From positions 119,290,001 to 119,354,000 of the forward strand of contig CM059431.1 in the NCBI GenBank assembly GCA_030390025.1: 64,000 nucleotides of DNA, written 5' to 3'. Shown in pieces: positions 29,498 to 56,500 of the stretch (the first letter of the stretch is position 1; every line of letters starts with the position of its first letter). The notes beneath the pieces were generated by a model. It ran no database searches. It worked only from the letters and a program-made list of their open reading frames with translations, and was not told where the DNA came from. The DNA comes from Squalus acanthias (lineage: Eukaryota). The position numbers and the translations under genes are program-made.

Positions 29498-31630
29498 GAA
29501 GGGGTTGACGGTGGATAGGCAATGGCAAACATTCAAAGACTGCATGGATGAACTACAGAATTTGTTCATCCCAGTGTGGCATAAGAATAAAACAAAAAGG
29601 GTGACTCAACCGTGGCTAACAAGGGAAATTAGGGATAGCATAAGATCCAAAGAGAGGGCATATAAATTGGCCAGAAAAAGCGGTAGCCCTGAGGATTGGG
29701 AGCAGATAAAGATTCAACAAAGGAGGACAAAGGGATTAATTAAGAAGGGGAAAATAGAATATGAAACTAAGCTTGCTGGGAACATAAAAACTGACTGTAA
29801 GAGCTTTTATAGATATGTGAAGAGAAAAAGATTAGTGAAATCAAGTGTAGGTCCCTTGCAGTCAGAAGCGGGGGAAGTTATAATGGGGAACAAAGAAATG
29901 GCAGACCAATTAAATGCATATTTTGGTTCTGTCTTCACAAAGGAGGACACAAATAACCTCCCAGAGATGTTGGAGAACATACGATCTGATGAAAGGGAGG
30001 AACTGAAAGAAATCAGTATTTGCAGGGAAATGGTGTTAGGGAAATTGACGGGATTGAAGGCCGATAAATCCCCAGGGCCTGATAATCTACATCCTAGGGT
30101 ACTTAAGGAAGTGGCCCTAGAAATAATAGATGCATTGCTGATCATCTTCCAACATTCGATGGAATCTGGAACTGTACCCATGGATTGGAGGGTAGCCAAT
30201 GTTACCCCACTATTCAAAAAGGGTAGTAGAGAGAAAGCCTGACATTGGGGAAAATGCTAGAGTTCATTATAAAGGATGTAATAGCTGAGCACTTGAAAAA
30301 CAGTGACAGGATCGGACAAAGTCAACATGGATTTACAAAAGGTAAATCGTGCTTGACTAATCTACTGGAATTTTTTGAGGATGTAACTGGGAAAATAGAT
30401 AAGGGAGAACCAGTAGATGTGGTGTATTTGGACTTTCAAAAGGCTTTCGATAAGGTCCCGCATAAGAGATTAGCGTGTAAAGTTAAGGCGCATGGGATTG
30501 GGGGCAAGGTATTGACTTGGATAGAGAACTGGTTGGCAGACAGAAAGCAGAGAGTAGGAATTAATGGGTCTTTTTCCGAGTGGCAAACAGTGACTAGTGG
30601 GGTACCGCAGGGATCGGTCCTTGGACCCCAGCTATTCATAATATACATTAATGATCTAGATAAGGGAACTAAATGTAATATCTCCAAGTTTGCAGATGAC
30701 ACAAAGCTGGGTGGGAGTGTGTGCTGCGAGGAGGATACCGAGAAACTCCAGGATGATTTGGACAGGTTGGGTGAGTGGGCAGAAGCGTTGCAGATGCAAT
30801 ATAACGTGGATAAGTGCGAGGTCATCCACTTTGGTGGCAAAAACAGAAAGGCAGACTATTATCTGAATGGCAATAGATTGGGAGAAGGGGAAGTGCAACG
30901 AGACCGAGGTGTCCTTGTGCACCAGTCGTTGAAAGTAAGCATGCAGGTGCAGCAGGCGGTGAAGAAGGCAAATGGTATGTTGGCCTTCATAGCGAAAGGG
31001 TTTGAGTATAGGAACAGGGATGTCCTGCTGCAGTTGTACAGGGCCTTGGTGAGACCACACCTTGAGTACTGTGTGCAGTTTTGGTCGCCTTATCTGAGGA
31101 AGGATGTTCTTGCCATGGAAGGAGTTCAGCGAAGATTCACAAGGCTGATACCTGGGATGGCAGGAATGACATATGAGGAGAAATTGGGTCGATTGGGCTT
31201 ATCCTCACTGGAGTATAGAAGAATGAGAGGGGATCTCATCGAAACATATAAAATTCTGACAGGTCTGGACAAACTAGATGCAGGAAGAATGTTCCTGATG
31301 GTCGGAGAGTCCAGAACCAGGGGTCATAATCTAAGGATAACGGGTAAACCATTTCGGACAGAAATGAGGAAGAATTTCTTCACCCAGAGAGTGGTGAACC
31401 TGTGGAATTCTCTACCACAGAAGGTAGTTGAGGCCAAGCCATTAAATATATTCAAGAATGAGTTAGATATATTTCTTAAAGCTAAAGGTATCAAGGGATA
31501 TGGGGAGAAGGCAGGTACAGGGTACTGCGTTTGGATGATCAGCCATGATCTCATCGAATGGCGGAGCAGGCTCGAGGGGCCGAATGGCCTACTCCTGCTC
31601 CTATCTCCTATGCTTCTATGTTTCTATGTT
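29497..31630 (+). mobile_element. CR1 LINE, 5'-truncated ORF2 (RT), small deletion at ~30240
   Basis: [35 protein letters not shown]. Tail (tatgtttc)n. Confidence 0.95.
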
Positions 31631-32045
31631 TCTCATCTCAGTTTTGAAAGAGCAGCCCCTTATTCTAAGAATATGCCCCCTAGTTCTAGTTTTGCCCATC
31701 ATCGGGAACATCCTCCCCGCATCCACCCGATCCAACCCCTTCACAATCTTATATGTTTCAATAAGATCGCCTCTCATTCTTCTGAACTCCAATGAGTAGA
31801 GTCCCAATCTACCCAACCTCTCCTCATATGTCCATCCCCTCATCCCCGGGATTAACCGAGTGAACCTTCTTTGTACTGACTCGAGAGCAAGTATGTATTT
31901 TCTTAAGTATGGACACCAAAACTGTATGCAGTATTCCAGGTGCAGTCTCACCAATACCTTGTACAACTGAAGCAATACATCCCTATTTTTATATTCTATC
32001 CCCCTAGCAATGAAAGCCAACATTCCATTGGCCTTCTTTATCACT
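31631..32045 (-). mobile_element. CR1 ORF2 fragment, tail-to-tail with the preceding copy
   Basis: KKANGMLAFI...LEYC.QFW.P...RRMRGDLIETYKI. Confidence 0.9.
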
Positions 32046-33109: not shown

Positions 33110-34763
33110 TGTAAGGGTCCCGTGTCTCAGACGGTGCCGGTGCGAGGTTAGGCCTTCGTTGCCTAATACTATTGCTTGCTCTGGTCTCCGACCAGCCTTT
33201 TTGTAATAAGCACCTGTGAGTGGTTTGACCCACTCGCCCTTACGGTTCTAACACTGGACTTAGGTGCAGGGAGCAGTAATGCAGAGAAAACTCAAATAGA
33301 CCCGGTTGAATAGTACGAATTGGAAATCTTTATTGCATAGCGTCCAAAATCACGAAGTACATGTCATAGGTGCAAATTAACGAGAGTACAAGTATACATA
33401 CATTCATAAAGCTTGGTCTATGGAAATGAAGAACGCACGGCACATCGTAAAAAGGGGAACACATTATACTTTAACCTTAATAAAACCACCCTCCCTTAAC
33501 AATACCTACACTACGTCTAGATTTGTAGGATCGTAAAACATGCTCACCACTCGTGTTACTTCGGAGAATTTTAAAGTGAGGCACTCAGCTCGTTTCGCTG
33601 CAGCGCCTGACTGTCACGTGTTTGGAAGGGTCTCTGTACCCCACTTGTTTATTTTCGCTGCTGCGACAAGCAGGCCAGACTCCCTGTTGTCATGAAGAAC
33701 TCGACGGACCTCGGACACAGTTCAAAGAAGAGTCTTCCTGTGCTCGACACCGGTTGTCGGTAGATTTCAATGAAGAGTTCTTTATTATATTTTCGGGCGC
33801 GGTCGGGGTTTACTGACCGTGGCGGCACGTGAATTCTTCTTCTTTTCTTGTCGTCTCGTCTCGTCTCTTCGGGCCTCCGGGTCCAGACACCGTTTACCGA
33901 CACTCGGGATGGTGTACCCTGTTACTTGCCCTTGTCGGGGCGGCTCGTTCCGATTGAGCTCCACCCAACATTCGAATAACCGACCAGTACGGCTAAAAGT
34001 CAAGAGTCAACAAAGTCCAGAGAAACACAGAAGGCTGCTCGTCCAGCAGAGCGATGCTCGAGGTTAAGAATAAGAGAATAAGAGTTCAGCAGTCAGCAGC
34101 GAGATAAGAGAGTCAAGAGACCGATGGACATTTGTTCACTATAGTTATAGTGCTGTGTCTGCTTATCTCCCACCAAAATCTTAATGTTTGTCTTTTGTGT
34201 AATATTGGCGCTCAAAACTCCCAGCATGGGGCGATTCTTCTCTTTAACGGGTTTCGGTAGCACCTCAAACTGGCCAACTACCAGTTAATGTTTTCCCCAT
34301 TGTTGACCCAGCCAGGATTGTATGAATCGTCTCCCTGACTGGTTTTGGGGGCCCCCGAATACTTGCTTAATCACCCGTCGATGTCTCTCTCATTGTAGAG
34401 CCGGGGGGGTATTTGTGTATTGATGTGTCTGGATGGGCCTTCGATTGCCCAGTACAATGGTCCTTACTTGTGCATGGAAAACGATTCCAGCACTTATATC
34501 TTTGCTATTGTTCCAAATGCAAACGGGTTGCATCCTGTCTTTATCAGTGTTTATCGAGTATGATCCAATCTTATATTGAATGTTTATTCGACGACATCTT
34601 GTCTGCCCACTGTATTTCTGGAAGCTTCTGCCACGATGCGCAGCGGCCATTTTACAGGCTTCTGCGTCCTGTATATCATGACAGCATTTTGTTTAATAAA
34701 ACTGATCAAACAAATCTGCTTCTCTCTAGTTATTTCGAATCGCGATAATAGCGAAACTTTACA
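33110..34763 (-). repeat. 3' LTR of the pol-less element
   Basis: Plus strand tgtaagggtcc...aaactttaca. Roughly 97-98% identical by eye to 40624-42270. Candidate minus-strand CCAAT at ~34204-34208, TATAA at ~34145-34149 and AATAAA at 33329-33334. Confidence 0.95.
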
Positions 34764-34775
34764 GTCCCTCCTGTT
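34764..34775 (-). promoter_or_regulatory. Polypurine tract
   Basis: Minus strand AACAGGAGGGAC immediately precedes the TG of the 3' LTR. Confidence 0.7.
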
Positions 34776-35159: not shown

Positions 35160-37508
35160 TTACGCGGTACTTTCCTCGTTCACGTGCACGTAACGTTCTC
35201 TCCACTCCCCTGTGTTCTCCTGCTTTGTGAGGCGTTTGCCTCTTTTGCAGTGTACGACCAATAGGTACACTACAATCACGACTTGACACACTACCAAAAT
35301 GTGGGAGGCTATCCTGATCCATGACGGAACTTCAATATTAGTGAACAGGTCCCACCACGGTGGGTCTACTATGTCTAGTATCTCTGTCCCTATCTCTACA
35401 GTATTTTGTTCCAGGGTGTAAAAAATTTTTGTGATACCATGACGGCTTTTAAAATCTTGGTGAGGTGTTCAAGGAGAGGGGGAATGATGTATCCGAAATG
35501 CGACGAATCGCTGCAAGTCTGTGAAATTCTCTTTTACTGTGAGGTGAACAGTGGATGGTTCAGGGATCGGGACAATTCGCTGTTGTGCCACTTGAACTTC
35601 AGCCCTGGGTTTAAAACAGAAACTGCTGTCACTCACCGGACACCGGCTGTGCTGTCCATGCTGGTAGTGTTGCGCTGCAGTGGTAACGCAATACATTCCA
35701 CCCCCTATGTATGCCACCTGTGGGGGCACATGATCTTGTGTCATTGCTTCCATGGTGCAATTCATGGGCTTCGCGCCAGCCGTTCTGAACCCGCATTGTG
35801 GTGTTAAAAAGGCATTCAAGTGCTGGGGACACAGTATGATGTGTGCTCCCCGGCCACAACAACCCGATAGGTCGGTACCTGTCATTGTTTGCTACCAGCG
35901 GATGATGTAAGGTGGGACCGCTGCGTAGCGAATGTGGGCTCCCCCCTGAATGACACCAATGTTCTCCACCCGATACACCGGGGCGGGCTTTGCTGTGTCG
36001 CCCAACACCGGCATACGTAGTACTATACCCATGATGGTATGGTTTGACTGTCCGCAGTCCATGGGGACTGGGTATGCCTCTGAGGCTAGCCTGAGCTGGC
36101 ACGGGCTTAATGCGTTCTGAAAAGGGTGGAGCGCCTGCAGGTGTTTGTTACTTATCCAGGACGGGACCAAACCTTGTTTTAAATCCTCCAAATTACTGCG
36201 GCCCTCGCCCAGTAACCACGCCCCGTATAGTACGCACACCTCGTTCTGTGCAGCTTGATCGGATGCATTCCGATCTTCCCTGATCAGGGCATTTACCGTT
36301 CTCGCATGCTTCTCCAGCTCTGCTATAATCTCTTTTAAGTGTAGTGTCATGGCCTGATCCTCATGTAACTCAGACCCTACTACCTTGTTTTCGCTTGTGA
36401 GGATGCTTTTTAACTGTGTTTTTAAACCGTTGATCTGGGTCTGCAGCTCCACGTTGTCTAGAGCGTTGACCACAGATGTTCCCGTATTAAAAGCAGTGAA
36501 CACATCATTCACAACACCCCTTCTTTGTCTCCCCACCTGACCCAAAACTTCGTGTGGTGCGGTGTACAAGCTTGTTTTGTCAATCTCTGCAAAATCAAAC
36601 TCGTAGAATTGTCTGAACATGTTTGTTAACAGGACCTGGTACAATTGTTCCGTTTCTTTGGGACACCACTCTGGTAAACGCACCTCGGTGAGATTTAGAA
36701 TCACTGAGGCCACCGCGTAATGTACCCCTTGATATAGTATCTGGTCTGTTGGCACCAGTACCAGACCATTCCCGGGCCCCTTAGTGGTTTTAGGGCACCC
36801 TTCTTCCTGAGCCAAAGCCACCGGAATCGTGGGCGGAGACTTGCGTGGGCGTGTGATGAGTTCAGTGGCGTTTACCGGGATCGGGGAGAATGGAGCTCCG
36901 CACCCCTTTGTGCTGACATCCCACCTCATCCCTTTCCCGTTATCCTGCCACTGGTGTACGAAAAATATGGATATACCCTTGTGGCAAACGTACTTCGATC
37001 CCCACATACAAACATATATTCCCTCATCCGGTTCCCACCATTTGTCCCAACAGACTTTCAATTGTCCGTTAGTCCCCGTAATTGTCCGATGGGTATTGTT
37101 ACCCAATCGCTCCCACTCGACCGAGGAATTTCTCATAGTCTTGCTTAACTTCCGTAACCACCACCATCGGCTCAATGGGACCTTCCCATTGCATGTCAAA
37201 CAAATCCTTTTGCCGACGGTGACGCTGATTCTGGGTGCAATGATCCTCACTCTGGGGCACAGCAAAGAAGTCTCTTTGTAGGCAAATCCGGATGCTCTGG
37301 AGTATTCCGTCGAATTCGTTCCCAGCCATCCCAGCCACCTTCCCTTATGGAAATAAGTGGCGGTTTCCTCAGCCTCTTGCTCCCCGGTCCCATCCGTCGC
37401 GATGGGGCCCGTGTCCCCGGAGCAACCGAACACAACGACATCCTTGGTGAGGCCCCGATAGGCCAATCCATATCCGATCGTTGCGAGCACTATCAGAATC
37501 CTTTCCAT
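35160..37508 (-). pseudogene. env: Envelope glycoprotein (~782 codons): signal peptide, Ig domain, class I fusion (F-like) ectodomain, TM, cytoplasmic tail; disrupted
   Basis: Hydrophobic N-terminus MERILIVLATIGYGLA; Ig motif C106...W117...DEGIYVC167; furin site RQRR|GVVNDVFTAF followed by a heptad helix. In-frame TAG at 35892-35894, then a Cys-rich region and a second lesion at ~35420-35500. The frame continues to ...WIRIASHILVVCQVVIVVYLLVVHCKRGKR...STA with TAA at 35160-35162. Confidence 0.85.
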
Positions 37509-37779: not shown

Positions 37780-38796
37780 CTAAATTCTGCGAAGGCTGCC
37801 ACGTGCTTTTCCCAGTGGCGGGGGGGCACTGACCCCTTCCTTTGATCTGCCGCAGCCTGTCGTCGCTGCGCTGGGACTGGGATCTCCCTGGGCTGCCTTG
37901 AACTTACGCCTGGGGGTGTACGAGGGATTTGACCACAACTTCCTGGGCTGGGGTGTCCGACTTGACCTACGGAGGGCTACCTTGGGCAAGATTTCCAGGA
38001 CCGACGGACCGGGAACCGAGACTTCCACCGTCACGGCCTGTGGTCCCACCACAGCTGCCGGCTCTGTCTCCCCTGGCTCCGCCCCCCTGGGCTCGGGATC
38101 TGCGGTTTCCGACTCCACCTTACTTGCTTCCCCAGTAAGTGGAACTCCACTCGCAATCCCTATCTCCCCTATGCTTGGGTCGAGGGCGGAACCTCCGTCC
38201 TCCGACCCCACCACCTCTCCGACCGGGTCACTACCTTGGTTGAGCTCTCCGAGCTCTTCCTCATCTGAATCCCATGACCAAGAAAAGATCCTACACTTTT
38301 CCAAAATGTCTTCTCCCCTCACGCAAGCTGCTTTACCGGCCTGTGTGCCCTGCGGTTCTACCCGGGGCTGAGAGTCCCCACTCGCAGGTCTGGCCCCTCC
38401 CCTAATACAGGCCACCGCCCCTGCTTGTGCATTCTGTGTAATCTCGCCTGCTGGAGGCTGAAGATTTCTATTCTGTTTTAGTTTGGGCAACTCTGCTACC
38501 ATGGCTTGCAACTGCGGGGTGGTGAATTCCCCCGGGGTTGTTGAGCAAACCATCCCTCTGGCTTTGGATAGGGCTTGGGTCAGACCTTTTATCCTTTCCT
38601 CACAGGGCCCATGGTTTAAAACCTCATACTCCCTGCTCCTGGCTACCATGTAGGCTGCCTTTATGTCTCTAAACTGCCCTTCTAGCCCATCTACTTTCCC
38701 CATTAAACGGGCGTTCTCCTCCCGCAAGGCCTGCTCTTTTAACCTGGCCTCCTTACAGGAGGCCCCCTCCTGTGTGTGTCTTTCAAGGGGACACAT
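37780..38796 (-). CDS. ORF2 (338 aa): truncated Gag paralog (coiled coil + first capsid-like helix) with an acidic/Pro-rich then basic tail; in frame with gag
   Basis: aa16-84 align without gaps to Gag aa122-190 (24/69 identical). QLQAMVAELPKL resembles Gag QLRAMINHVRKL. The ORF is uninterrupted. Confidence 0.75.
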   Translation of the reverse strand: MCPLERHTQEGASCKEARLKEQALREENARLMGKVDGLEGQFRDIKAAYMVARSREYEVLNHGPCEERIKGLTQALSKARGMVCSTTPGEFTTPQLQAMVAELPKLKQNRNLQPPAGEITQNAQAGAVACIRGGARPASGDSQPRVEPQGTQAGKAACVRGEDILEKCRIFSWSWDSDEEELGELNQGSDPVGEVVGSEDGGSALDPSIGEIGIASGVPLTGEASKVESETADPEPRGAEPGETEPAAVVGPQAVTVEVSVPGPSVLEILPKVALRRSSRTPQPRKLWSNPSYTPRRKFKAAQGDPSPSAATTGCGRSKEGVSAPPPLGKARGSLRRI

Positions 38797-38820
38797 GTAG
38801 GCAGGCTGCGCTAGTTCCAG

Positions 38821-40551
38821 TCAGAAGTCTGGGTTGTATGGGGCTGTTGCTACCTTCCCGTGTGAGGTCATAAGAGACCGCATGGCTCCTAACATCGACT
38901 CGATCGCGTCGGGATGGATAGGCACACCAGCTCCTCTCTCAGAGACAGGCGTTTGGGCTCGGACTGTGCGAGCTTTGTCCCTGGAGTCCTTCCAGGGATT
39001 CCTGTAGTTTTTACGCCAGTGACCTGTCTTCCCACACCCGTAACAAACACCACTGGTTTGTGGGGCGCGATTTCCCTCCTGATGCCACTCTTTCTGAGCC
39101 GGAGCTGCAGGCTTTGCTTCATGCACCTTTCCCTTAAGGGGACGCGCTCCCGTGCTCCTAGTGTTCCGATACCCTATGGTGAGTCGATTTAGGACAGACT
39201 CCTCCGTTGTGGCGGCGTTAGTGGGATCAAACCATGCTCTGGCCTGCTCCCTGATGGCTGGCAAGCTGTTGGCTACTAGACACCTGAGCCAATGAGCTTT
39301 CCCGGCGCCGTTAAGATAGGCGCGCGCTGGCGCACCTGGGCAGCTACGCTGGTAGACTGGCCACAGCCCGTCGGCGAAAACCTTCGGGGGTTCTCCCTCC
39401 ATCTTTATGGTTTGACTCAATCTGACGAACGGACCTTCGTCATCCGCCCCTAAAACTTCTAGGACCTCGTCCCGTAACTCCTCATAGGTTTTATTTCCCT
39501 TCTTGCTCTCGTCTGAGAGACACTGAAGGATCGAGCTATCTAACGAGAACAGCAACATTTTGGTCTTTTCCTCATCGTCGCAGCCATTAATTGCTGCGGT
39601 CTGTTCTACTTCCCTAAAATGTACGGAAGGGTCGTCTGACTCGGACAGTTTCCGTACATGGTTAATCATTGCTCTCAGCTGGTGTGAGCTGTGGGGCAAT
39701 ACAAGCTGGTTCAGGACATCCCCGTCATCCCCATTGGCTGCATTCGGGCCTCTCTTGTGACCTCGGAGCGGACACATCGGTCCCGGTCCCGACTCTACCT
39801 CCAGGGACTGTCCTACCTGGGGCACCTCCTTCTCTATTTCCACCACTTCCTCCCTTACCCAGGTTGCCGAATAGCTGGGTGGCGCGGAGGGCACAGTGGC
39901 AAATACCTCTTCTGCTTTGTCTGGTAGGGATTTTGGGAATTCCCTACCCACCTGTGGCTGGTTTGCTGACGGGCTGATGAGGCACACCAAGCCGTTTGCC
40001 TTATTCAGGGCCTCTCTTAGGTTCCCTATCTCCTTCTGGCAAACACTGTGGTCGGCTCCCTCATGCCTATCCTCGAGGGCCATCTTGTATGTCGCCCTAA
40101 CTCCCTTCAAGCTTTCTTCCTGGGCTTTTATCTGGTTAGCAAGGCGGACACACCGTTCTCTAATCCTACCCTCGTTTAATTTCGCTTCCGTGACCTGACA
40201 TTCTAAGTAATCAATTTTAGCCTCATGGTGGTTGGCTACTATTTGGCGTTCCTGATGTAATGCATTAAATGATACAATGAGTTTTTGTCCTCCCGTGATC
40301 TTTTCCTCCATCTCAACTTCCAGTTCCCTGATCTGAGCTGCCTGTGCCACAATGACCTGGTCCGAAAGTTGGACTTGCTTCTTGTAGCACATCAGCCAGT
40401 CCGCTTTCTCTACCGACTTCTTATGCTCTTTACTGCCTGTCCATTTGATGGCGGCGTCTAGCGGACGCTTATCCATCAGTAGGTCACTTATCCACCTTTT
40501 GGTTAAGTTAACCTTCCCAAACACATCGTCAGCTACCCTCTGATCCATCAC
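38821..40551 (-). CDS. gag: Gag-like protein (576 aa)
   Basis: First ORF after the PBS. N-terminal coiled coil, PSAPPSY late domain, helical capsid-like region (DPSVHFREVEQTAAINGC.., EGEPPKVFADGL), and zinc knuckle CYGCGKTGHWRKNY with the last C replaced by Y (TAC). Confidence 0.88.
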   Translation of the reverse strand: MMDQRVADDVFGKVNLTKRWISDLLMDKRPLDAAIKWTGSKEHKKSVEKADWLMCYKKQVQLSDQVIVAQAAQIRELEVEMEEKITGGQKLIVSFNALHQERQIVANHHEAKIDYLECQVTEAKLNEGRIRERCVRLANQIKAQEESLKGVRATYKMALEDRHEGADHSVCQKEIGNLREALNKANGLVCLISPSANQPQVGREFPKSLPDKAEEVFATVPSAPPSYSATWVREEVVEIEKEVPQVGQSLEVESGPGPMCPLRGHKRGPNAANGDDGDVLNQLVLPHSSHQLRAMINHVRKLSESDDPSVHFREVEQTAAINGCDDEEKTKMLLFSLDSSILQCLSDESKKGNKTYEELRDEVLEVLGADDEGPFVRLSQTIKMEGEPPKVFADGLWPVYQRSCPGAPARAYLNGAGKAHWLRCLVANSLPAIREQARAWFDPTNAATTEESVLNRLTIGYRNTRSTGARPLKGKVHEAKPAAPAQKEWHQEGNRAPQTSGVCYGCGKTGHWRKNYRNPWKDSRDKARTVRAQTPVSERGAGVPIHPDAIESMLGAMRSLMTSHGKVATAPYNPDF

Positions 40552-40600
40552 ATTTCGCCTATTGAAACCAGGTCTAAAACATTACTCTCCTGCTGCCAAT

Positions 40601-40623: not shown

Positions 40624-42270
40624 TGTAAGGGTCCCGTGTCTCAGACGGTGCCGGTGCGAGGTTAGGCCTTCGTTGCCTAATACTATTGCTTGCTCTGGTC
40701 TCCGACCAGCCTTTTTGCAATAAGCACCTGTGAGTGGTTCGACCACTCGCCCTTACGGTTCTAACACTGGACTTCGGTGCAGGGAGCAGTAATGCAGAGA
40801 AAACTCAAATAGACCCGGTTGAATAGTACGAATTGGAAATCTTTATTGCATAGCATCCAAGATCATGAGTACATGTCATAGGCGCAAATTAACGAGAGTA
40901 CAAGTATACATACATTCATAAAGCTTGGTCTATGGAAATGAAGAACGCACGGCACATTGTAAAAAGGGGAACACATTATACTTTAACCTTAATAAAACCA
41001 CCCTCCCTTAACAATACCTACACTACATCTAGATTTGTAGGATTCGAAAACATGCTCACCACTCGTGTTACTTCGGAGAATTTTAAAGTGAGGCACTCAG
41101 CTCGTTTCGCTGCAGCGCCTGACTGTCACGTGTTTGGAAGGGTCTCTGTACCCCACTTGTTTATTTTCGCTGCTGCGACAAGCAGGCCAGACTCCCTGTT
41201 GTCATGAAGAACTCGACGGACCTCGGACACAGTTCAAAGAAGAGTCTTCCTGTGCTCGACACCGGTTGTCGGTAGATTTCAATGAAGAGTTCTTTATTAT
41301 ATTTTCGGGCGCGGTCGGGGTTTACTGACTGTGGCGGCACGTGAATTCTTCTTCTTTTCTTGTCGTCTCGTCTCGTCTCTTCGGGCCTCCGGGTCCAGAC
41401 ACCGTTTACCGACACTCGGGATGGTGCACCCGGTCACTTGCCCTTGTCGGGGCGGCTCGTTCCGATTGAGCTCCACCCAACATTCGAATAACCGACCAGT
41501 ACGGCTAAAAGTCAAGAGTCAACAAAGTCCAGAGAAACACAGAAGGCTGCTCGTCCAGCAGAGCGATGCTCGAGGTTAAGAATAAGAGTTCAGCAGTTAG
41601 CAGCGAGATAAGAGAGTCAAGAGACCAATGGACATTTGCTCACTATAGTTATAGTGCTGTGTCCGCTTATCTCCCACCCAAATCTTAATGTTTGTCTTTT
41701 GTGTAATATTGGCGCTCAAAACTCCCAGCATGGGGCGATTCTTCTCTTTAACGGGTTTCGGTAGCACCTCAAACTGGCCAACTACCAGTTAATGTTTTCC
41801 CCATTGTTGACCCAGCCAGGATTGTATGAATCGTCTCCCTGACTGGTTTTGGGGGCCCCCGAATACTTGCTTAATCACCCGTCAATGTCTCTCTCATTGT
41901 AAAGCCGGGGGGGGGCATTTGTGTATTGATGTGTCTGGATGGGCCTTCGATTGCCCAGTACAATGGTCCTTACTTGTGCATGGAAAACGATTCCAGCACT
42001 TATATCTTTGCTATTGTTCCAAATGCAAATGGGTTGCATCCTGTCTTTATCAGTGTTTATCGAGTATGATCCAATCTTATATTGAATGTTTATTCGACGA
42101 CATCTTGTCTGCCCACTGTATTTCTGGAAGCTTCTGCCACGATGCGCGGCAGCCATTTTACAGGCTTCTGCGTCCTTTATAATCATGACAGCATTTCGTT
42201 TAATAAAACTGATCAAACAAATCTGCTTCTCTCTAGTTATTTCGAATCGCGATAATTGCGAAACTTTACG
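40624..42270 (-). repeat. 5' LTR of the pol-less element
   Basis: Plus strand tgtaagggtccc...aaactttacg (terminal CA mutated to CG), followed by the TSD GTAT. Confidence 0.95.
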
Positions 42271-43599
42271 GTATTGCAATGACTTTAATAACACTGCCAA
42301 ATCACTCATGTACTGCCCCATTTGCCATGGAGCAGACAACAGGGTTGGGAAAATGGCAGGACAAACATCCTGTTATCCTGTTTGTTGGCACCCTCTGCTG
42401 TTTAGATTATCGAGACTGATGAAAATAGGCTTATTTGGCTAACTGGATGAATTCAGATCTGCAACTTCTAAATTGCTCATTTCTGGTGTACTGTGAATCA
42501 CACAGTTAGAGGGGGAGGGTGGGGGTGTGGAGATTTCCATTGATCACTATGTGTAACAAAAACTGTGAACCTATTTTCTCTAAAGAGGTTTATAATTTTG
42601 TTACCAGTAATGCGCAGAGGAAATGTTTCCCCAATGTTGGGATGCTGTTACCTTGGTAACTGCATATATTATTCCAGATTGATATCATGCTTGTTCTAAA
42701 CCCAGCAACTTTATGAAGTGTGACAGCCCTTAAAGTAAATAACTTACAGTTAACTATAATGTAGGTTTCTGCGTTATGACGAATAGCTACTGGTACCTTT
42801 TTGTGAGTCCGTTCATATTTGTTTGTGCTGTATATTCAAAACTCATTACTAAAAACTCATGACGACGGATATATATATTTTTTTAAATGGATTAAGTGGT
42901 TCTAATCAGCGTTGCATCTTATTGATGTGTGAGATTCCCTGTTGACTATTATGCAGCTTCAGGCAAGAGTAGAAAAGTAATTAGATATAATATGTACTGA
43001 CAGTAGGGAGATATGTCTACGCTTGCCAGATCCTTTCCCTTATTACCACACATAAGCTAGATAGAGGCAGCCTGAGAACAGATCTTTAATGCAGAGTTCT
43101 TCCTGTTCTGGCATCATAAAGTTATGCTCCAATGATATTTTGAGTGGGAACAGAAGATGATTTCTCATTAATGATGCTGGAGCTAAATTCAATTTCATAT
43201 TGGTCATTAAATGCATTCAAATGGTGTTGTGTAGTGAAAATCTAAACTACAGTATCTGCATTGTAATGCATTCTACTAGAGCAATGGCATATCCTTTGTA
43301 CTGGAGATCCTTTATCTTTATGTTTTGCTACATAACTAAAGAATACAAAATTGAGCAATGGTGGGATATAACGCTTATTCTATGAGTGAGGAATACCTTC
43401 TCCACGTTTGTCAGTTACCAACGTTAAAGATTATTTTTTCAACAATTGGTACAACTTAACCTGTTAAAGCTAAAATTTTAACACGCTCAAGAAAAAAATA
43501 AAAAGCAAAATATCACTGCAACCTCAGACTACCATGAAATCAGAAAAAATACTTTAAAGGGTAAACTTTGCTTCTGGTATGGAGACTGGCTTGATGGAA

Positions 43600-45950
43600 A
43601 CACAGCATTACCATCGCCGAATCCCCCACCATCAACATCCTGGGGCTCACCATTGACCAGAAACTTAACTGGACCAGCCACATAAATACTGTGGCAACAA
43701 GAGCAGGTCAGAGGCTAGGTATTCTGCGGCGAGTGTCTCACCTCCTGACTCCCCAAAGCCTTTCTACCATCTACAAGGCACAAGTAAGGAGTGTGATGGA
43801 ATACTCTCCACTTGCCTGGATGAGTGTAGCTCCAACAACACTCAAGAAGCTCGACACCATCCAGGACAAAGCAGCCCGCTTGATTGGTGTAAGGGGGACG
43901 TGTCTCAGACGGTGCTGGTGCGAGGTTAGGCCTTCGTTGCCTATACTATTGCTTGCTCTGGTCTCCGGCCAGCCTTTTTGCAATAAGCACCTGTGAGTGG
44001 TTCGACCCACTCGCCCTTACGGTTCTAACACCTGGACTTAGATGCAAGGGTAAGTAATGCAGAGAAAACTCAAATAGACCCGGTTGAATAGCACGAAATG
44101 AAAATCTTTATTGCATGGCGTCTAAAATCATGAAATACATGTAATAGACGCAAATCAAAGAGAGTACAAGTATACACACGTTCATAAAGCTTGGTCTATG
44201 GAAATGGAGAACACACGGCACATCGTAAAAAGTGGAACACATTATACCTTAACCTTATAAAAAACCACCCTCCCTTAACAATACCTAAACTACATCTGGA
44301 TTTGTAGGATCGGAAATCATGCTCACCACTCGGCTTACTTCGGAGATTTTAAAGTGAGGCACTCAGCTCGTTTCGCTGCAGCGCCTGACTGTCACGTGTT
44401 TGGAAGGGTTTCTGCACCCCACTTGTTTACTTTCGCTGCTGCGACAAGCAGGCCAGACTCCCTGTTGTCATGAAGCAGTCGATGGACTCAAGCCATCTTA
44501 GAATTCAAAGAAGGATCTTCCTGTGTTGCAGTACATGTAGAAGTCGGTAGAACTCAAAGGAAAGTTCTTTTAGTTATATTTTCGGGCAGTGGTCGGGGTT
44601 TACTGACCGTGGCGGCACGTGGAATTTCTTCTCGTCTTCTTCTCTTCTCGTCTCCTCGGGCCTCCGGGTCCAGATACCGTTTACCGACACTCGGGATGGT
44701 GTGCCCTGTTACTTGCCCTTGTCGAGGCGGCTCGTTCCGATTGAGCTCCACCCAACACTCGAATAACCGACCAGTACGGCTAAAAGTCAAGAGTCAACAG
44801 AGTCCAGAGAATCAAATGACCAAAAGTCCAGCCCCAAGGAACAGCTTCAGCAAGGGTCACCAGAGAGATAAGAGTTCAGCAAGTGAATAAGAGAGTGATG
44901 GACATTTGTCCTCTATAGCTATACTGTTGTGTCCGCTTTATCTCCCGCTCAAATCTAAATGTTTATCCTTTGTGTGATTTTGGCGCTTAAAACTCCCAGC
45001 ATGGGGCGATTATCTTCTTAACGGGTTTTGGTAGCACTTGAAACTGGCCAACTATCTGTTAATGTTTTCCCCATTGTAGAGCCAGCCAGGATGTGTATGA
45101 ATCGTCTCCTCGACTGGTTTTGGGGCCCCCCGAATACTGGCTTAATCACCCGCCAATGTCTCTCTCATTGTTGAGCCGGGGGGGTATTTGTGTATTGATG
45201 TGTCTGGATGGGCCTTCGATTGCCCAGTTCAATGATCCTTACTGTGCATAGGAAAACGATTCCAGCACTTATATCATTGCTATTGTTTAGAATGCAAACG
45301 GGTTGCATCCTGTCTTTATCAATGTGTACCGAGTATGATCCAATCTCATACTGAATGTATATTCGACGCCATCTTGTCTGCCCACTGTATCTCTGGAAGC
45401 TTCTGCCACGATGCGCGGCGGCCATTTGGCAGTCTTCTGTGTCCTTTAATATTAGAACAGCATTTCGTTTAATAAAAATGATCAATTGAATCTGCTTCTC
45501 TCATGTTATTTTGAATCGCGATAATTGCGAAACTCTACAGTAGCACCCCCTCTACCACCTTAAACATTCACTCACTCCACCACCGGTGTAACGTGGCTGC
45601 AGTGTGTACCATCTATAAAATGCACTGCAGCAACTTGCCAAGGCTTCTTCGGCAGCACCTCCTAAACCCGCGACCTCTTCCATCTAGAAGGACAAGGGCA
45701 GCAGACTTATGGGAACACCACCACCTCCAAGTTCCCCTCCAAGTCACACATCATTCTGACTTAGAAGTATATCGCTGATCCTTCATCGTCGCTGGGTCCA
45801 AATCCTGGAACTCCCTCCCTAACAGCACTGTGGAAATACCTTCACCACACAGACTGCAGCGGTTCAAGAAGGCGGCTCACCACCACCTTCTCAAGGGCAA
45901 TTAGGGATGGGCAATAAAGGCTGGCCTTGCCAGCGATGCTCACATCCCAT
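43600..45950 (+). mobile_element. Non-LTR LINE 3' fragment (CR1/L2 group) split by the solo LTR
   Basis: ORF2 C-terminus (AGQRLGILRR...IYKAQVRSVMEYSPLAW...IQDKAARLIG) stops at 43887 and resumes at ~45544 (TPSTTLNIHSLHHR...) into the 3'UTR. Confidence 0.85.
43888..45539 (-). mobile_element. Solo LTR of the same family as 33110-42270, older subfamily
   Basis: tgtaagggggacgtgtctcag...aaactctaca, colinear with the proviral LTRs but visibly more diverged. The 4-bp flanks TTGG / GTAG look like a decayed TSD. Confidence 0.92.
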
Positions 45951-47228: not shown

Positions 47229-50200
47229 CCTATACGTCATTCCTCTCACTATGAAGGCCAACATACCATTTGCCTTCTTAACCGTCTGCTGCACCTGCAT
47301 GCTTACCTTCAGCGACTGGTGCACAAGGACACCCAGGTCTCGTTGCACTTCCCCTTTTCCCAATCTATTGCCGTTCAGATAATAATCTGTCTTCCTGTTT
47401 TTGCCACCAAAGTGGATAACCTCGCATTTATCCACATTATACTGCATCTGCCATGCATCTGCCCAATCACCCAACCTGTCCAAATCATACTGGAGTTTCT
47501 CTGCATCCTCCTAACATGCGCACACGCCCACCCAGCTTTGTGTCGTCTGCAAACTTGGAGAAATTACATCTAGTTCCCTCGTCTAGATCATTGATATATA
47601 TTGTGAATAACTGGGGTCCTAGCACCGATCCCTGTGGTACCCCACTAGTCACTGCCTGCCACGCGGAAAAAGACCCGTTTATTCCAACTCTTTGCTTCCT
47701 GTCTGCCAACCAGTTCTCTATCCAAGTCAATACCTTACCCCCAATCCCATGTGCTTTAACTTTGCACACTAATCTCTTATGTGGGACCTTATCGAAAGCC
47801 TTCTGAAAGTCCAAATACACCACATCCACTGGTTCTCCCTTATCTATTCTACCAGTTACATCCTCAAAAAATTCCAGTAGATTAGTCAAGCATGATTTAC
47901 CTTTTGTAAATCCATTTTGACTTTGTCCGATCCTGTCACTGTTTTCCAAGTGCTCTGCTATTGCATCTTTTATAATGGACTCTAGCATTTTCCCCACTAC
48001 CGATGTCAGGCTTACCGGTCTATAATTCCCTGTTTTCTCTCTACCACCTTTTTTAAATCGTGGGGTTACATTAGCTACCCTCCAATCCATGGGAACTGTT
48101 CCAGAGTCTATAGAATTTTGGAAGATGACCAGCAATGCATCTACTATTTCTAGGGCCACTTCCTTAAGTACCCTAGGATGTAGATTATCAGGCCCTGGGG
48201 ATTTATCGGCCTTCAATCCCGTCAGTTTCCCGAACACCATTTCCCTACAAATACTGATTTCATTCAGTTCCTCCCTCTCATTGGACCCTATGTTCCCCAA
48301 CATCTCTGGGAAGTAATTTGTGTCCTCCTTTGTGAAGACAGAACCAAAGTATGTATTTCATTGGTCTGCCATTTCTTTGTTCACCATTATAAATTCCCCT
48401 GATTCTGACTGCAAGGGACCTACGCTTGACTTCACCAATCTTTTTCTCTTTATATATCGATAGAAGCTTTTACAGTCAGTTTTTATGTTCCCTGAAAGCT
48501 TACTCTCATACTCTATTTTCCCCTTCTTAATTAATCCCTTTGTCCTCCTTTGCTGAATCCTAAACTTGTCCCAATCCTCAGGTTTGCTGCTTTTTCTGGC
48601 CAATTTATATCTCCTCTCCTTGGATCTTATGCTATCCCTAATTTCCCTTGTTAGCCACGGTTGAGTCACTTTTTTTGTTTTATTTTTATGCCAAACAGGG
48701 ATGAACAAATTCTGTAGTTCTTCCATGCGATCTTTAAATGTTTGCCATTGCCTATCCACCGTCTTCCCTTTAAGTAACATTTCCCAATCCATCCTAGCCT
48801 ACTCGCGCCTCATACCATCGTAGTTTCCTTTATTTAAATTCAGGACCCTAGTCTCTGAGTCAACTACTTCACTCTCCATCTTAATGAAGAATTCTATCAT
48901 ATTATGATCGCTCCTCCCCAAGGGGCCTCGCACAACAAGATTGCTAATTAATCCTTTCTCATTACATAATACCCAGTCGAAGATGGCCTGATCTGTAGTT
49001 GGTTCCTTTATATATTGGTCCAGGAAACCATCCCGTATACACTCCAGGAATTCCTCCTCCACAGTATTGTTACTAATTTGGTTAGCCCAATCTATATGTA
49101 GATTAAAGTCACCCATGATAACTGCAGTGCCCTTATTGCACGCATCTCTAATTTCCCGTTTAATGCCATCCCCAACCTCAGCATTACTGTTTGGGGGTCT
49201 GTATACAACTCCCACTAATTTTTTCTGCCCCTTGGTATTTCTCAGCTCTACCTATACAGATTCCACATCATCAGAGCTAATATCCTTCCTTACTATTGTG
49301 TTAATCTCCTCTTTGACCAGCAATGCTACCCCACCTCTTTTTCCTTTTTGCCTGTCCTTCCTGAATATTGAATACCCCTGGATGTTGAATTCCCAGCCTT
49401 GGTCACCCTGGAGCCATGTCTCCGCAATCCCAATTATATCATATCCGTTTACATCTATTTGCGCAGCTAATTCATCCACCTTATTATGAATGCTCCTTGC
49501 ATTAAGACACAAGCCTTAAGGCTTGTTTTTTTAATACTCTTAGACATTTTAAAATTATTGTTTACTGTGGCCATGTTTGATTTACACCCTTGATTTCTCT
49601 GACTTCCACTTTTGCTTTTCTCCTTCCTGTCTTTTGCTTCTATCCTTGCTTCCCTTTCCTCTGTCTCCCTGCACAGGTTCCTAACCCCCTGCCATTTTAG
49701 TTTAAACCCTCCCCAACAGCACTAGCAAACACTCCCCCTAGGATATCGGTCCCGGTCCTGCCCAGGTGCAAACCATCCAGTTTTTACTGGACCCTCCTCC
49801 CCCAGAACCGGTTCCAATGTCCCAGGAATTTGAATCCCTTCCCCTTGCACCATTCCTCGAGCCACGTATTCATCTGAAATATCCTTCTATTTCTACTCTG
49901 ACTAGCACGTGGCACTGGTAGCAATCCTGAGATTACTACCTTTGAGGTCCTATTTTTTAATTTACCTCCTAACTCCCTATATTCAGCTTTTAGGACCTCA
50001 TCCCGTTCTTTACCTATATCGTTGGTACCTATATGCACCATGACAACTGGCTGTTCACCCTCCCCCTCCAGAATGCCCTGCAGCCGCTCCGAGACATCCT
50101 TGACCCTTGCACCAGGGAGGCAACATACCATCTTGGAGTCTCGTTTGCGGCCCCAGAAACGCCTATCTATTCCCCTTACAATAGAATCCCCTATCACTAT

Positions 50201-50985
50201 AGCTCTCCCGCTTTTTTTCCTCCCGTCCTGTGCAGCAGAACCACCCATGGTGCCAGAAGTTGGCTGCTGCCTTCCCCCGATAAGCCATCTCCCTCAACAA
50301 TATCCAAAGCAGTATATCTGTTTGAGAGGGGGATGGCCACAGGGGACCCCTGCACTACCTGCCTGCACCTACTACTCTGCCTGGCGGTCAACGATTCCCT
50401 TCCTGCCTGTGCAGCCTTTACCTGCGGTGTGACCAACTCATTAAATATGCTATCAACGACGTCCTCAGCATTGAGAATGCTCCAGTATGTATCCATTTGC
50501 AGCTCCAGCTGGATACACTTCCCGCACACATGGTCGTCAGGGACACAGGAAGTGTCCCTGATTTCCCACATAGTGCAGGAGGAGCATGCCACAGGGCCGA
50601 GCTGTGCTGCCATGACTTACCCTTTAATTAATTTAAATTAAATTAGATCAAATCAATACCACTAATTACACTACAATTAAATGATATACGCAAGGGCCCT
50701 TGTTTACTAGCACGCCCCGCTACACAACAGAGACCTTCGAAACTATAACCACAAAATTAAGACCTTCTAAACTTTGTAAACTATTAACCTTAACTGTCAA
50801 ACTATAGAGTAGTATAAATACTCACCTGGCCGTACTCACCCAATCAGCTGCTTCCTCTTGCCCGCGTTACTTTTTGAATCATGACGTGGCTCTGGAACGC
50901 TGCCACCGGTCTGCGAGATTGGTAAGCCTCTGAAAAAAAGCCCATGAAAGTGAGTTTAAGTACTCACTGTACCGCCGCTCTCTGT
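47229..50985 (-). mobile_element. CR1 LINE with 5'UTR, ORF1 and 3'-truncated ORF2
   Basis: ORF1 remnants: Cys motif CSSCTMW...CGKC and SGNH-esterase motifs GDSIVR, LPGARV, HIGTND (49784-50613). ORF2 endonuclease + RT at 49512-47229 with stops and frameshifts. Confidence 0.93.
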
Positions 50986-54844: not shown

Positions 54845-56500
54845 GGGAGATATCTATGCACGGACTGGTGTCTCTCAGTCCCCTCACGCTCAGGGAGGAA
54901 TCTGTACACTAACTGGTGTCTCTCAGTCTCCTCTCCCTCATGAAAATATCTATATATTGACTGGTGTCCCTCAGTCCCCCTCTCTCCGGGAGATATCTAT
55001 ACATTGATTGACGTCTCTCAGTCCCTCTCTCTCTGGGAGATATCTGTACACTGACTGGTGTCTCTCAGTCCCCTCTCTTTCAGAGAGATAACTATACACT
55101 GACTGGTGTCTCTCAGTCCCTCTCTCAATGAGATATATGTACACTGACTGGTGTCTCTCATTCCCCTCTCCCTCATGGAAATGTCTATACATTGACTGGT
55201 GTCTCTCAGTCCCTCTGTCTCCTGGAGATATCTGTACACTGACTGGTGTCCCTCAGTCCCCTCTCCATCAAGGAAATATCGCTACACTGACCTGTGTCTC
55301 TCAATCCCTCTCTCTTTGGGAGATATCTGTACACTAACTTGTGTCTCTCAGTTCCCTCTCTCTCTTTCAGGGAGATATCTGTAAGCTGATTGGTGTCTCT
55401 CAGTCCCCTCTCCCTCAGGGAGGTATCTGTACTCTGACTGATGTCTCTCAGTCCCTTCTCCCTCAAGGAGATATCTATACATTGACTGATGTCTCTCTGT
55501 CCCCTCTCTTTCAGGGAGATATCTATACAATGACTGGTGTCTCTCAGTCCCCCCTCCCTCAGACAGATATCTGTACACTGACTGGTGTCTCTCAGTCCCC
55601 CCTCCCTCAGACACATATCTGTACACTGACTGGTGTCGCTCAGTCCTCTCTCCCTCAGGGAGATACTTGTACACAGACTGATGTCCCTCAGCCCCCTCTC
55701 CCTCAGGGAGATATCTGTACACTGACTGGTGTCTCTCAGTCCCTCTCTCTCCGGGAGATATCTGTAAGCTGACTGGTGTCTCTCAGTCCCTCTCTCCCTG
55801 GGAGATATCTGCAAGCGGACTGGTGACTCTCAGTCCCTCTCTCTTTGGTAGATAGCTGTACACTGAATTGTTGTCTCTCTGTCCCCTCTCCATCAGGGAG
55901 ATACCTGCACACTGACCGGTGTCTCTCAGTCCCTCTCTCTCTGAGAGATATCTGTACACTGACTGGTGTCTTTCAGACCCCTCGCTCTCTCAGGGAGATA
56001 TCTGTCAGCTGACTGGTGTCTGCCAGTCACTCTCCTTCTGGTAGATATCTGTACACTGACTGGTGTCCCTCAGTACCCTCTCCATCAGGGAGATATCTGT
56101 ACACTGACCGGTGTCTCTCAGTCCCTCTCTCTCTGGGAGATATCTGTACACTAACTGGTGTCTCTCAGTTCCCTCTCTCTCTCTCAGGGAGATATCTGTA
56201 CACTGGCTGGTGTCTCTTAGTCACTCTCCCTCAGGGAGATATCTGTAAGCTGACTGGTGTCTCTCAGTCCCCTCTCCCTCAGGGAGATATCTGTACACTG
56301 GCTGGTGTCTCTCAGTCACTCTCCCTCAGGGAGATATCTGTAAGCTGACTGGTGTCTCTCAGTCCCCTCTCCCTCAGGGAGATATCTGTACACTGACTGG
56401 TGTCTCTCAGTCCCCTCTCCGTCAGGGAGGTATCTGTACTCTGACTGATGTCTCTCAGTCCCTCTCTGTCAGGGAGATATCTGTACACTGAATGGTGTCC
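54845..56500. repeat. ~45-48-bp minisatellite (~35 copies)
   Basis: Unit ~gggagatatctgtacactgactggtgtctctcagtcccctctccctca. Confidence 0.95.

Follow-up and report, generated by a model that had tools for sequence, protein, structure and literature searches.

Lokiretroviruses are the nearest described group to the element considered here, the likeness being one of domain content and architecture. They are long terminal repeat (LTR) elements with gag, pol, and env genes, whose envelope protein (Env) has a signal peptide, an R-x-K/R-R motif, a fusion peptide, coiled coils, and a membrane anchor (PMC7947760). Two papers liken this Env to the paramyxovirus fusion protein F (PMC7947760, PMC9040795). 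The window analyzed here, a 64,000-nucleotide (nt) stretch of the Squalus acanthias genome (GenBank assembly GCA_030390025.1, contig CM059431.1, positions 119,290,001 to 119,354,000 of the forward strand), contains on its minus strand an endogenous retrovirus (ERV) whose sister copies have the same plan. Its env gene (35160..37508) encodes the parts listed above and, ahead of them, a module at amino acids (aa) 85-184 (36957..37256) with the sequence signature of the immunoglobulin (Ig) superfamily. The favored interpretation, held at somewhat better than even odds, is that this module is an Ig-like β-sandwich serving as the outer, receptor-binding head of the F2-equivalent subunit of an F-type class I Env.

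The resemblance to lokiretroviruses extends to pol and to hosts (PMC7947760). Sister copies of the window element carry the RT_RNaseH 'tether', a second RNase H, and integrase, and the dual RNase H by which the group is recognized is present in sister copy L032. Relatives of the window Env occur in frogs, coelacanth, and eel, all of them host groups listed for lokiretroviruses. The same source reports a match of lokiretrovirus Env to the Pfam family PF00523 at 2.2e-7, whereas window-family Env has none. The words 'shark', 'cartilaginous', and 'immunoglobulin' each have 0 occurrences in the text of PMC7947760, and that of PMC9040795 mentions neither cartilaginous fishes nor an Ig domain.

By its architecture and by features of the protein language model ESM, the Env core looks like an F-type class I fusion protein. 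Reading of the sequence gives the F-type order of signal peptide, F2, basic cleavage site, fusion peptide, heptad region A, body, heptad region B, and transmembrane segment. The F proteins of paramyxoviruses and pneumoviruses and of baculoviruses and errantiviruses (PF00523, PF12259, PF07253) share the F2-cleavage-F1 order and a large Cys-rich body between two heptad regions. Judged by ESM, aa 236-783 come closest to clusters of Gypsy/Baculo_F and Fusion_gly, scoring 0.94-0.95 and sharing 205-213 features (a lead only), and one relative has a weak Baculo_F match under the cut-off (E 0.0011). Counting against this assignment, PF00523 matched neither the open sister copy P0002 at E<=10 nor anything in the whole genome, and none of 14 control genomes matched it either. 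A scan of 51 relatives yielded 55 families, and the 25 of these that were displayed did not include it either.

A preliminary description of the locus held Ig domains to be foreign to F and Env proteins, which was overstated. An Ig-like fold occurs in domain II of paramyxovirus F (PMC4848605), a domain internal to F1, and gamma-type Env begins with a receptor-binding domain of β-strands, followed by a poorly conserved proline-rich hinge, with the variable parts of the surface subunit (SU) head facing the receptor (PMC9967133). The portion of that claim that stands concerns placement and signature: unlike F domain II, the module is an extra N-terminal head before F2, with a canonical Ig-superfamily sequence signature. 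Gamma-type SU has the same order of head and Pro-rich hinge, but no sequence relation between it and window-family Env was found. The fusion subunit of the latter is far larger than the retroviral transmembrane subunit, and no CX6CC motif was seen in it on reading by eye. Herpes-, pox-, irido-, and adenoviruses also encode Ig-family proteins, which supplied the best named matches in a viral structure library (E >= 5.5e-3); these are separate accessory proteins, whereas here the domain lies within a retroelement fusion glycoprotein. Searches of open-access texts turned up no account of an F-type retroelement Env, lokiretroviral or other, that bears an N-terminal head with an Ig signature, and the sole prior flag seen is an automatic UniRef name on one shark homolog.

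Sequence signature and predicted fold of the N-terminal module

Residue n of Env starts at position 37508-3(n-1), and positions 36957-37256 hence correspond exactly to aa 85-184. The motifs named for this segment in the preliminary description, the Cys spacing, and the Pro-rich linker are all present. The B-strand motif ISVTVGKRICLTC includes C103 and C106 (G99-K-R-I-C103-L-T-C106) and follows the pattern G-x-x-I-x-L-x-C106. In the C-strand motif RWWWLRK (W115-117), W116/W117 follow C106 within the 10-15 residues typical of V-set and I-set domains of the Ig superfamily; the E-strand motif GQLKVCW includes C153; and the F-strand motif EPDEGIYVC (D161, G163, Y165, C167) supplies the signature D-x-G-x-Y-x-C. 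The spacing of 61 residues between C106 and C167 lies inside the V/I-set range of ~55-75. The I-set pattern reads L-x-I-x-x-V-x-x-x-D-x-G-x-Y-x-C, and V152, W154, and W157, counted back from C167, fit its hydrophobic positions by eye. Given Env's own composition, a protein of 783 aa should contain the F-strand motif [DE]xGx[YF]xC, taken alone, 0.009 times. For the joint pattern, which adds to this motif a G..[VIL].[VIL].C in the B strand 50-70 aa upstream and a suitably placed Trp, the chance expectation falls to ~3e-6.

These hallmarks are retained across 44 genomic copies, comprising 30 of the window family and 10 and 4 from two subfamilies at 53-64% identity. C84, C103, C106, W116, C153, and G163 are kept in all 44; W117, Y165, C167, and C175 are kept in 43, and position 161 is D or E in 43 of the 44. 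Relatives from other cartilaginous fishes, at 44-78% identity, keep the hallmark residues as well. Between the window family and the third subfamily, the nonsynonymous rate (dN) is 0.25-0.27 in the Ig region vs 0.11-0.12 in F1, with the synonymous rate (dS) saturated, and amino acid identity is 62-63% vs 80-82%. The head is thus kept by selection yet evolves about twofold faster than the fusion core. Variation within the module follows its predicted structure, with a column entropy of 0.49 in predicted strands vs 0.90 in loops (Mann-Whitney p=0.008, for seven representative rows chosen by hand from the alignments). The most variable loops are C-C' (1.39) and F-G (1.06). Two N-glycan sequons, N127 and N137, lie within the domain.

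A C-x-x-C (CLTC) at Env aa 103-106 (37191-37202, minus strand) is invariant in the B strand of all 44 copies. Distant shark relatives also have a C-x-x-C (CTCNG, CFTC, CVQC), and the frog proteins do not. Judging from sequence, C103 may pair with C153 of the neighboring E strand; alternatively, CLTC may, as with the CXXC in gamma-type Env, be a redox motif, in which case the analogy suggests that it might provide a redox-controlled link to the fusion subunit.

Profile and language-model searches return to the same fold. Ig_3 is the recurring sub-threshold Pfam match, aligning each time to the same residues through positions 2-74 of its 78. Its E-values are 0.0027 for P0070, 0.0085 for P0011, 0.047 for the second-subfamily copy L041, 0.22 for P0002, 0.46 (11.5 bits) for the window copy (P0001), and 0.58 for P0005, and it appears at E<=1 in 4 of the 51 family members scanned. 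ESM features of aa 78-200 place first a cluster of an FLT3 fragment labeled 'ig' (score 0.90); seven further displayed clusters are Ig families (V-set, I-set, Ig_3, C1-set, Ig_6). The clusters at ranks 2 and 3, also at 0.90, have no common family, and the ten best family-bearing matches all belong to one clan.

An AlphaFold model of the domain (aa 80-200, from 13 natural rows) has a core at Env residues 100-169 with block-mean values of the predicted local distance difference test (pLDDT) of 59-79. Its six strands (102-107, 115-120, 132-135, 141-146, 149-154, and 165-169) sit at the positions expected of B, C, C', D, E, and F. A Foldseek search of the Protein Data Bank (PDB) with this model gave three matches at E<=0.001. 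The top rows listed, at E 7e-4 to 2.4e-3, probability 1.00, and TM-scores of 0.44-0.54, are by title antibody light-chain, VNAR, VHH, and VpreB-type (surrogate-light-chain) structures, most of them chains of ~100-115 residues. VIA-align against 48,161 representative chains returned a best Z of 8.0 (root-mean-square deviation 2.6 A over 86 residues) and 344 chains at Z>=5. Its rows include V domains of Fab fragments and T-cell receptors, Ig domains of CD79b, obscurin, titin, NCAM2, neuroplastin, and basigin, and a skate VNAR. Identity to these structural neighbors is 10-21%.

A number of results weigh against an Ig assignment. No curated Ig profile matched above its cut-off, the best Pfam score being 18.6 bits vs 30, and one close relative (P0003) has no Ig match in Pfam at all. 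An ESM score of 0.90 is also reached by 4-10% of shuffled proteins, which keeps it at the level of a lead, and the 152 shared features fall below the 170 typical of a same-family match. Among solved structures, a sequence search with full Env gave one chance match (E 1.7), a profile of the N-terminal alignment A2 gave two (E 1.6-1.8), and a profile of the Ig-region alignment A3 gave 0 matches at E<=10. A first AlphaFold model of aa 1-260, from nine rows, had a mean pLDDT of 37.5 and was not used for fold searches. The domain model is itself middling (mean pLDDT 57.6, predicted template modeling score 0.53), with pLDDT <50 in its tails, where the A and G strands would lie. Best Z values of 7-8 in VIA-align are typical of models without a clear match. 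Finally, the motif, Pfam, ESM, model, and fold-search lines share one sequence signal and are not independent of one another.

Such results would be expected if the segment were not a true Ig-superfamily domain but a Cys/Trp-rich viral β module whose Ig-like motif misleads the predictors. That alternative draws on the Pfam matches that all stay under the cut-off, the empty PDB profile searches, the model's unsure A and G strands, and the extra conserved C103 and C153, which a plain Ig domain does not need. It is nevertheless unlikely. The joint motif is very improbable by chance, the strands of the model agree in position with the motif, and Ig domains make up most of the top structural matches, no rival fold appearing in the rows shown; moreover, the B and E strands are adjacent in an Ig sheet, which would make an additional C103-C153 bond geometrically plausible. 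The Ig-like sandwich is the sole fold to which the evidence points, and it is proposed with moderate confidence on lines that are consistent though none is strong singly. In sum, the modeling and the motifs together make it probable that aa 85-184 adopt an Ig-like fold, and the segment singled out in the preliminary description belongs integrally to env, where it is conserved, shows the Ig hallmarks, and is predicted to have an Ig-like structure.

Envelope relatives and the origin of the module

An HMMER pass over 1.84 billion representative proteins gave 51 matches at E<=0.001. Eight of the 51 reach into aa 1-230, and each is either an env relative or a gene model in which a piece of env is fused to a host gene: three from skate, two from whale shark, two metagenome records, and one zinc-finger fusion. 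A word-indexed protein search added P0070 as the sole new N-terminal relative, and viral contigs searched with a single Env protein yielded no relative. More distant full-length relatives (smooth-hound, bamboo shark, two frogs, and one further record) align from aa 221-237 onward only. The start of the core there, C-P...P-x-x-G-L-V, is nearly invariant, with C238, P239, P245, and G248 unchanged in all or nearly all of 11 relatives drawn from sharks, frogs, coelacanth, and eel. A profile of these 11 (alignment A1) matched, among solved structures, only the heptad region of influenza HA2, at E>=0.097.

Upstream of this shared core, the relatives diverge. Skate and whale shark relatives have the Ig-like module, whereas the coelacanth and eel proteins lead directly from signal peptide to core and have no head module. 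Smooth-hound and sawshark proteins bear a different Cys-rich N-terminal module in which a CxxC is retained. The bamboo shark protein, named 'Ig-like domain-containing protein' in UniRef, shares the B-strand motif C-T-C-N-G with the window Env; the N-terminus of P0037 has a weak V-set match (E 0.045); and a Cys...Trp...Cys pattern can be seen by eye in the N-termini of the two frog proteins. When the Ig-family alignment was compared with these distant heads by hhalign, none gave a significant match, P being 0.036 (24 columns) for P0014, 0.023 (7 columns) for P0013/P0024, 0.19 for the two frog proteins, and 0.2 for P0037. Because the N-terminal modules on one shared core differ or are absent, the head can be regarded as modular, and its absence from the coelacanth and eel relatives marks the Ig-like module as an add-on. 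The frog relatives P0020 and P0050 also have an R-x-K-R motif (REKR and RNKR) upstream of their own Ig-like-looking module, which would imply that the frog lineage has either an additional cleavage or an extended leader. In public annotations, of sharks and others, four gene models (P0008, P0009, P0012, and P0038) fuse env pieces to host genes, and probably arose as annotation artifacts; the partners are a C2H2 zinc-finger protein, a cadherin, an F-box protein, and a 'Niban 1-like' protein.

The preliminary description derived the module from a captured host gene. An Ig-superfamily signature is typical of animal cell-surface proteins, and the structural neighbors include V domains of shark and skate, both of which would suit recent capture from a cartilaginous-fish host. 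No donor came to light, however: among the 51 matches drawn from 1.84 billion representatives there is no cellular Ig-superfamily protein matching aa 1-230, and the profile searches of solved structures returned no Ig protein. Identity to the structural neighbors is also no higher than the 10-21% given above, and the module is common to the skate and whale shark env relatives (44-78% identity) and to three subfamilies, and so predates their split. A recent capture is accordingly very improbable.

Order of parts and role of the module

The env gene is broken in the window copy; intact sister copies encode 783 aa, and the window gene is 96.5% identical at the nt level to an open copy in L002. 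The open reading frame (ORF) that remains (P0001) has 538 aa and runs on the minus strand, as do all env features below, from 37508 down to 35895. It ends at an in-frame TAG at codon 539 (35892..35894), the first break, beyond which two small deletions, of 2 nt near 35502 and of 1 nt near 35424, leave ~27 codons out of frame. A putative signal peptide (aa 1-19, 37452..37508) was read by eye from the hydrophobic N-terminus MERILIVLATIGYGLAYRG. It is followed by a segment at aa 20-84 (37257..37451) that contains C29, C84, and a sequon at N65, is conserved in relatives, and is β-rich at low confidence in the first AlphaFold model. The Ig-like domain (aa 85-184), supported by its motifs, the sub-threshold Ig_3 matches, ESM, AlphaFold, and conservation, then gives way to a segment at aa 185-203 (36900..36956) that ends in C203 and forms the low-confidence tail of the model. 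The Pro-rich linker (aa 204-232, 36813..36899) has 7 Pro in 29 residues and a sequon at N213; its pLDDT is <50, and it is the least conserved stretch between subfamilies (41-45% aa identity). The F2-like core (aa 233-330, 36519..36812) extends from the conserved C238-P...P-x-x-G-L-V to the cleavage motif RQRR (aa 327-330, 36519-36530), an R-x-K/R-R motif. The F1-like part up to the first break (35895..36518) opens with a fusion-peptide-like hydrophobic start (G331...) and includes a heptad region. A transmembrane anchor (35247..35312, aa 734-755 of the open sister copy), placed on the read-through translation by a hydropathy maximum of 2.6 over 19 residues, precedes a short tail.

This order suggests how the protein might work. 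A signal peptide, a 65-residue piece, the Ig-like domain, a Pro-rich hinge, the F2 core, and the RQRR cleavage site would be followed by the fusion peptide, a heptad repeat, the Cys-rich body, a second heptad region, and the membrane anchor. In the proposed mechanism, the Ig-like head would bind a cell-surface receptor through its variable loops, and the hinge would relay binding to the fusion core, which would then refold. Paramyxoviruses use a separate attachment protein, on which F normally depends. The element encodes no such protein, and the reading adopted is therefore of an F-type Env sufficient in itself, with the Ig-like domain as its receptor-binding head. Gamma-type SU has a comparable layout in its receptor-binding domain and proline-rich region (PMC9967133). 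The preliminary description rightly placed the segment N-terminal to the Pro-rich linker and fusion core, which is where a receptor-binding head is expected. Taken by itself, the proposal that receptor binding is the main role of the domain stands at even odds.

Viral Ig proteins bring a different function to mind. In the viral structure library, the domain model found nothing at E<=0.001 (best E 5.5e-3), and the best named matches, all weak, were elephant herpesvirus vIgFam15, an iridovirus Ig-like protein, and a poxvirus CD200-like protein. These matches, together with the sequons at N127 and N137, would suit a domain for immune modulation, decoy, or shielding, with receptor contact made elsewhere in Env. 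The weakness of the same matches argues against this role, as does position: the domain does not stand alone as a secreted or membrane protein but is joined, across a hinge, to the membrane-distal end of a fusion protein. In addition, no other candidate attachment module was seen in Env. A primarily immune role is thus considered improbable, and a receptor-binding head remains the preferred assignment for the domain.

The provirus, its copies, and their significance

The element that contains this env is one of many copies of its ERV, with pol deleted and env broken. Its 5' LTR (40624..42272, minus strand) was delimited by the direct repeat families D3-D12 and its 3' LTR (33110..34765, minus strand) by direct repeats and comparison with the other LTR. 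The two ~1.65-kb LTRs are 97.5% identical over 1657 nt (27 mismatches, 7 gap openings). A scan for ORFs and domains between them finds a gag-like ORF, ORF2, and env, and no pol. The gag-like ORF (38821..40581, minus strand; 586 aa stop to stop) has a weak CCHC knuckle near its C-terminus, matching Pfam zf-CCHC at E=0.029, under the cut-off. The chimeric ORF2 (37780..38820, minus strand; 346 aa) marks where pol was deleted and joins, in frame, a coiled-coil piece resembling gag (34% identity with aa 132-204 of the element's own gag, E 8e-12) to the C-terminal tail of Pol (70% identity with Pol aa 736-997 of a full-length sister copy). When the DNA upstream of env was compared in six sister copies (L031-L036), L032, L033, and L035 were found to hold an extra 3.7-4.2 kb, with reverse transcriptase (RT), RNase H, and integrase, at the point where the window copy has none; that of L032 encodes RVT_1, RT_RNaseH, RNase_H, Integrase_H2C2, and rve. 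L031 and L036 have the pol-less layout of the window copy, and L034 matched at its end alone. Recurrence of the pol-less layout in L031 and L036 indicates that the deleted form was itself copied.

A first look at the 3.7-Gb genome gave 9764 env candidates. The best 80 of these were scored, and all are 95-100% identical over aa 1-538; by hand count, 35 of these 80 best-scoring window-family copies have open frames of at least 789 aa with no stop in the matched part. The same genome holds at least two further env subfamilies, with Ig regions 53-58% and 62-64% identical to that of the window. The many open frames and the 2.5% LTR divergence of the window copy point to very recent activity.

Elsewhere in the window, a third LTR copy (43887-45541) lies ~1.6 kb beyond the 5' LTR, with segments 62-95% identical to the LTRs of the provirus, and probably represents either a solo LTR or what is left of an older related insertion. 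A LINE-type element (47485-50293, minus strand) is represented by ORF pieces with RVT_1, endonuclease/exonuclease/phosphatase, and GDSL-lipase/OSK-like domains. A putative second one (29544-31795, plus strand) has ORFs that on reading resemble LINE reverse transcriptase. A tandem-repeat array occupies 54850-55990, its copies spaced in multiples of ~47-48 bases.

How F-type envelopes of retrovirus-like elements find their receptors is not addressed in the literature found, and an Ig-like head behind a hinge offers a concrete, testable candidate for that role. It is also an example of the exchange of modular heads on one fusion core, and it places this envelope class in cartilaginous fishes, which are unlisted in the founding lokiretrovirus paper (PMC7947760). 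A wider generalization is tentative and, as a whole, rather doubtful: vertebrate F-type retroviral envelopes would carry exchangeable N-terminal heads, and one shark and skate lineage would use a true V/I-type Ig domain, ultimately of cellular origin, as its receptor binder. If true, the protein would be a self-sufficient 'F plus attachment' protein. This very young, abundant shark family, with its many open env frames, is natural material for structural and binding work.

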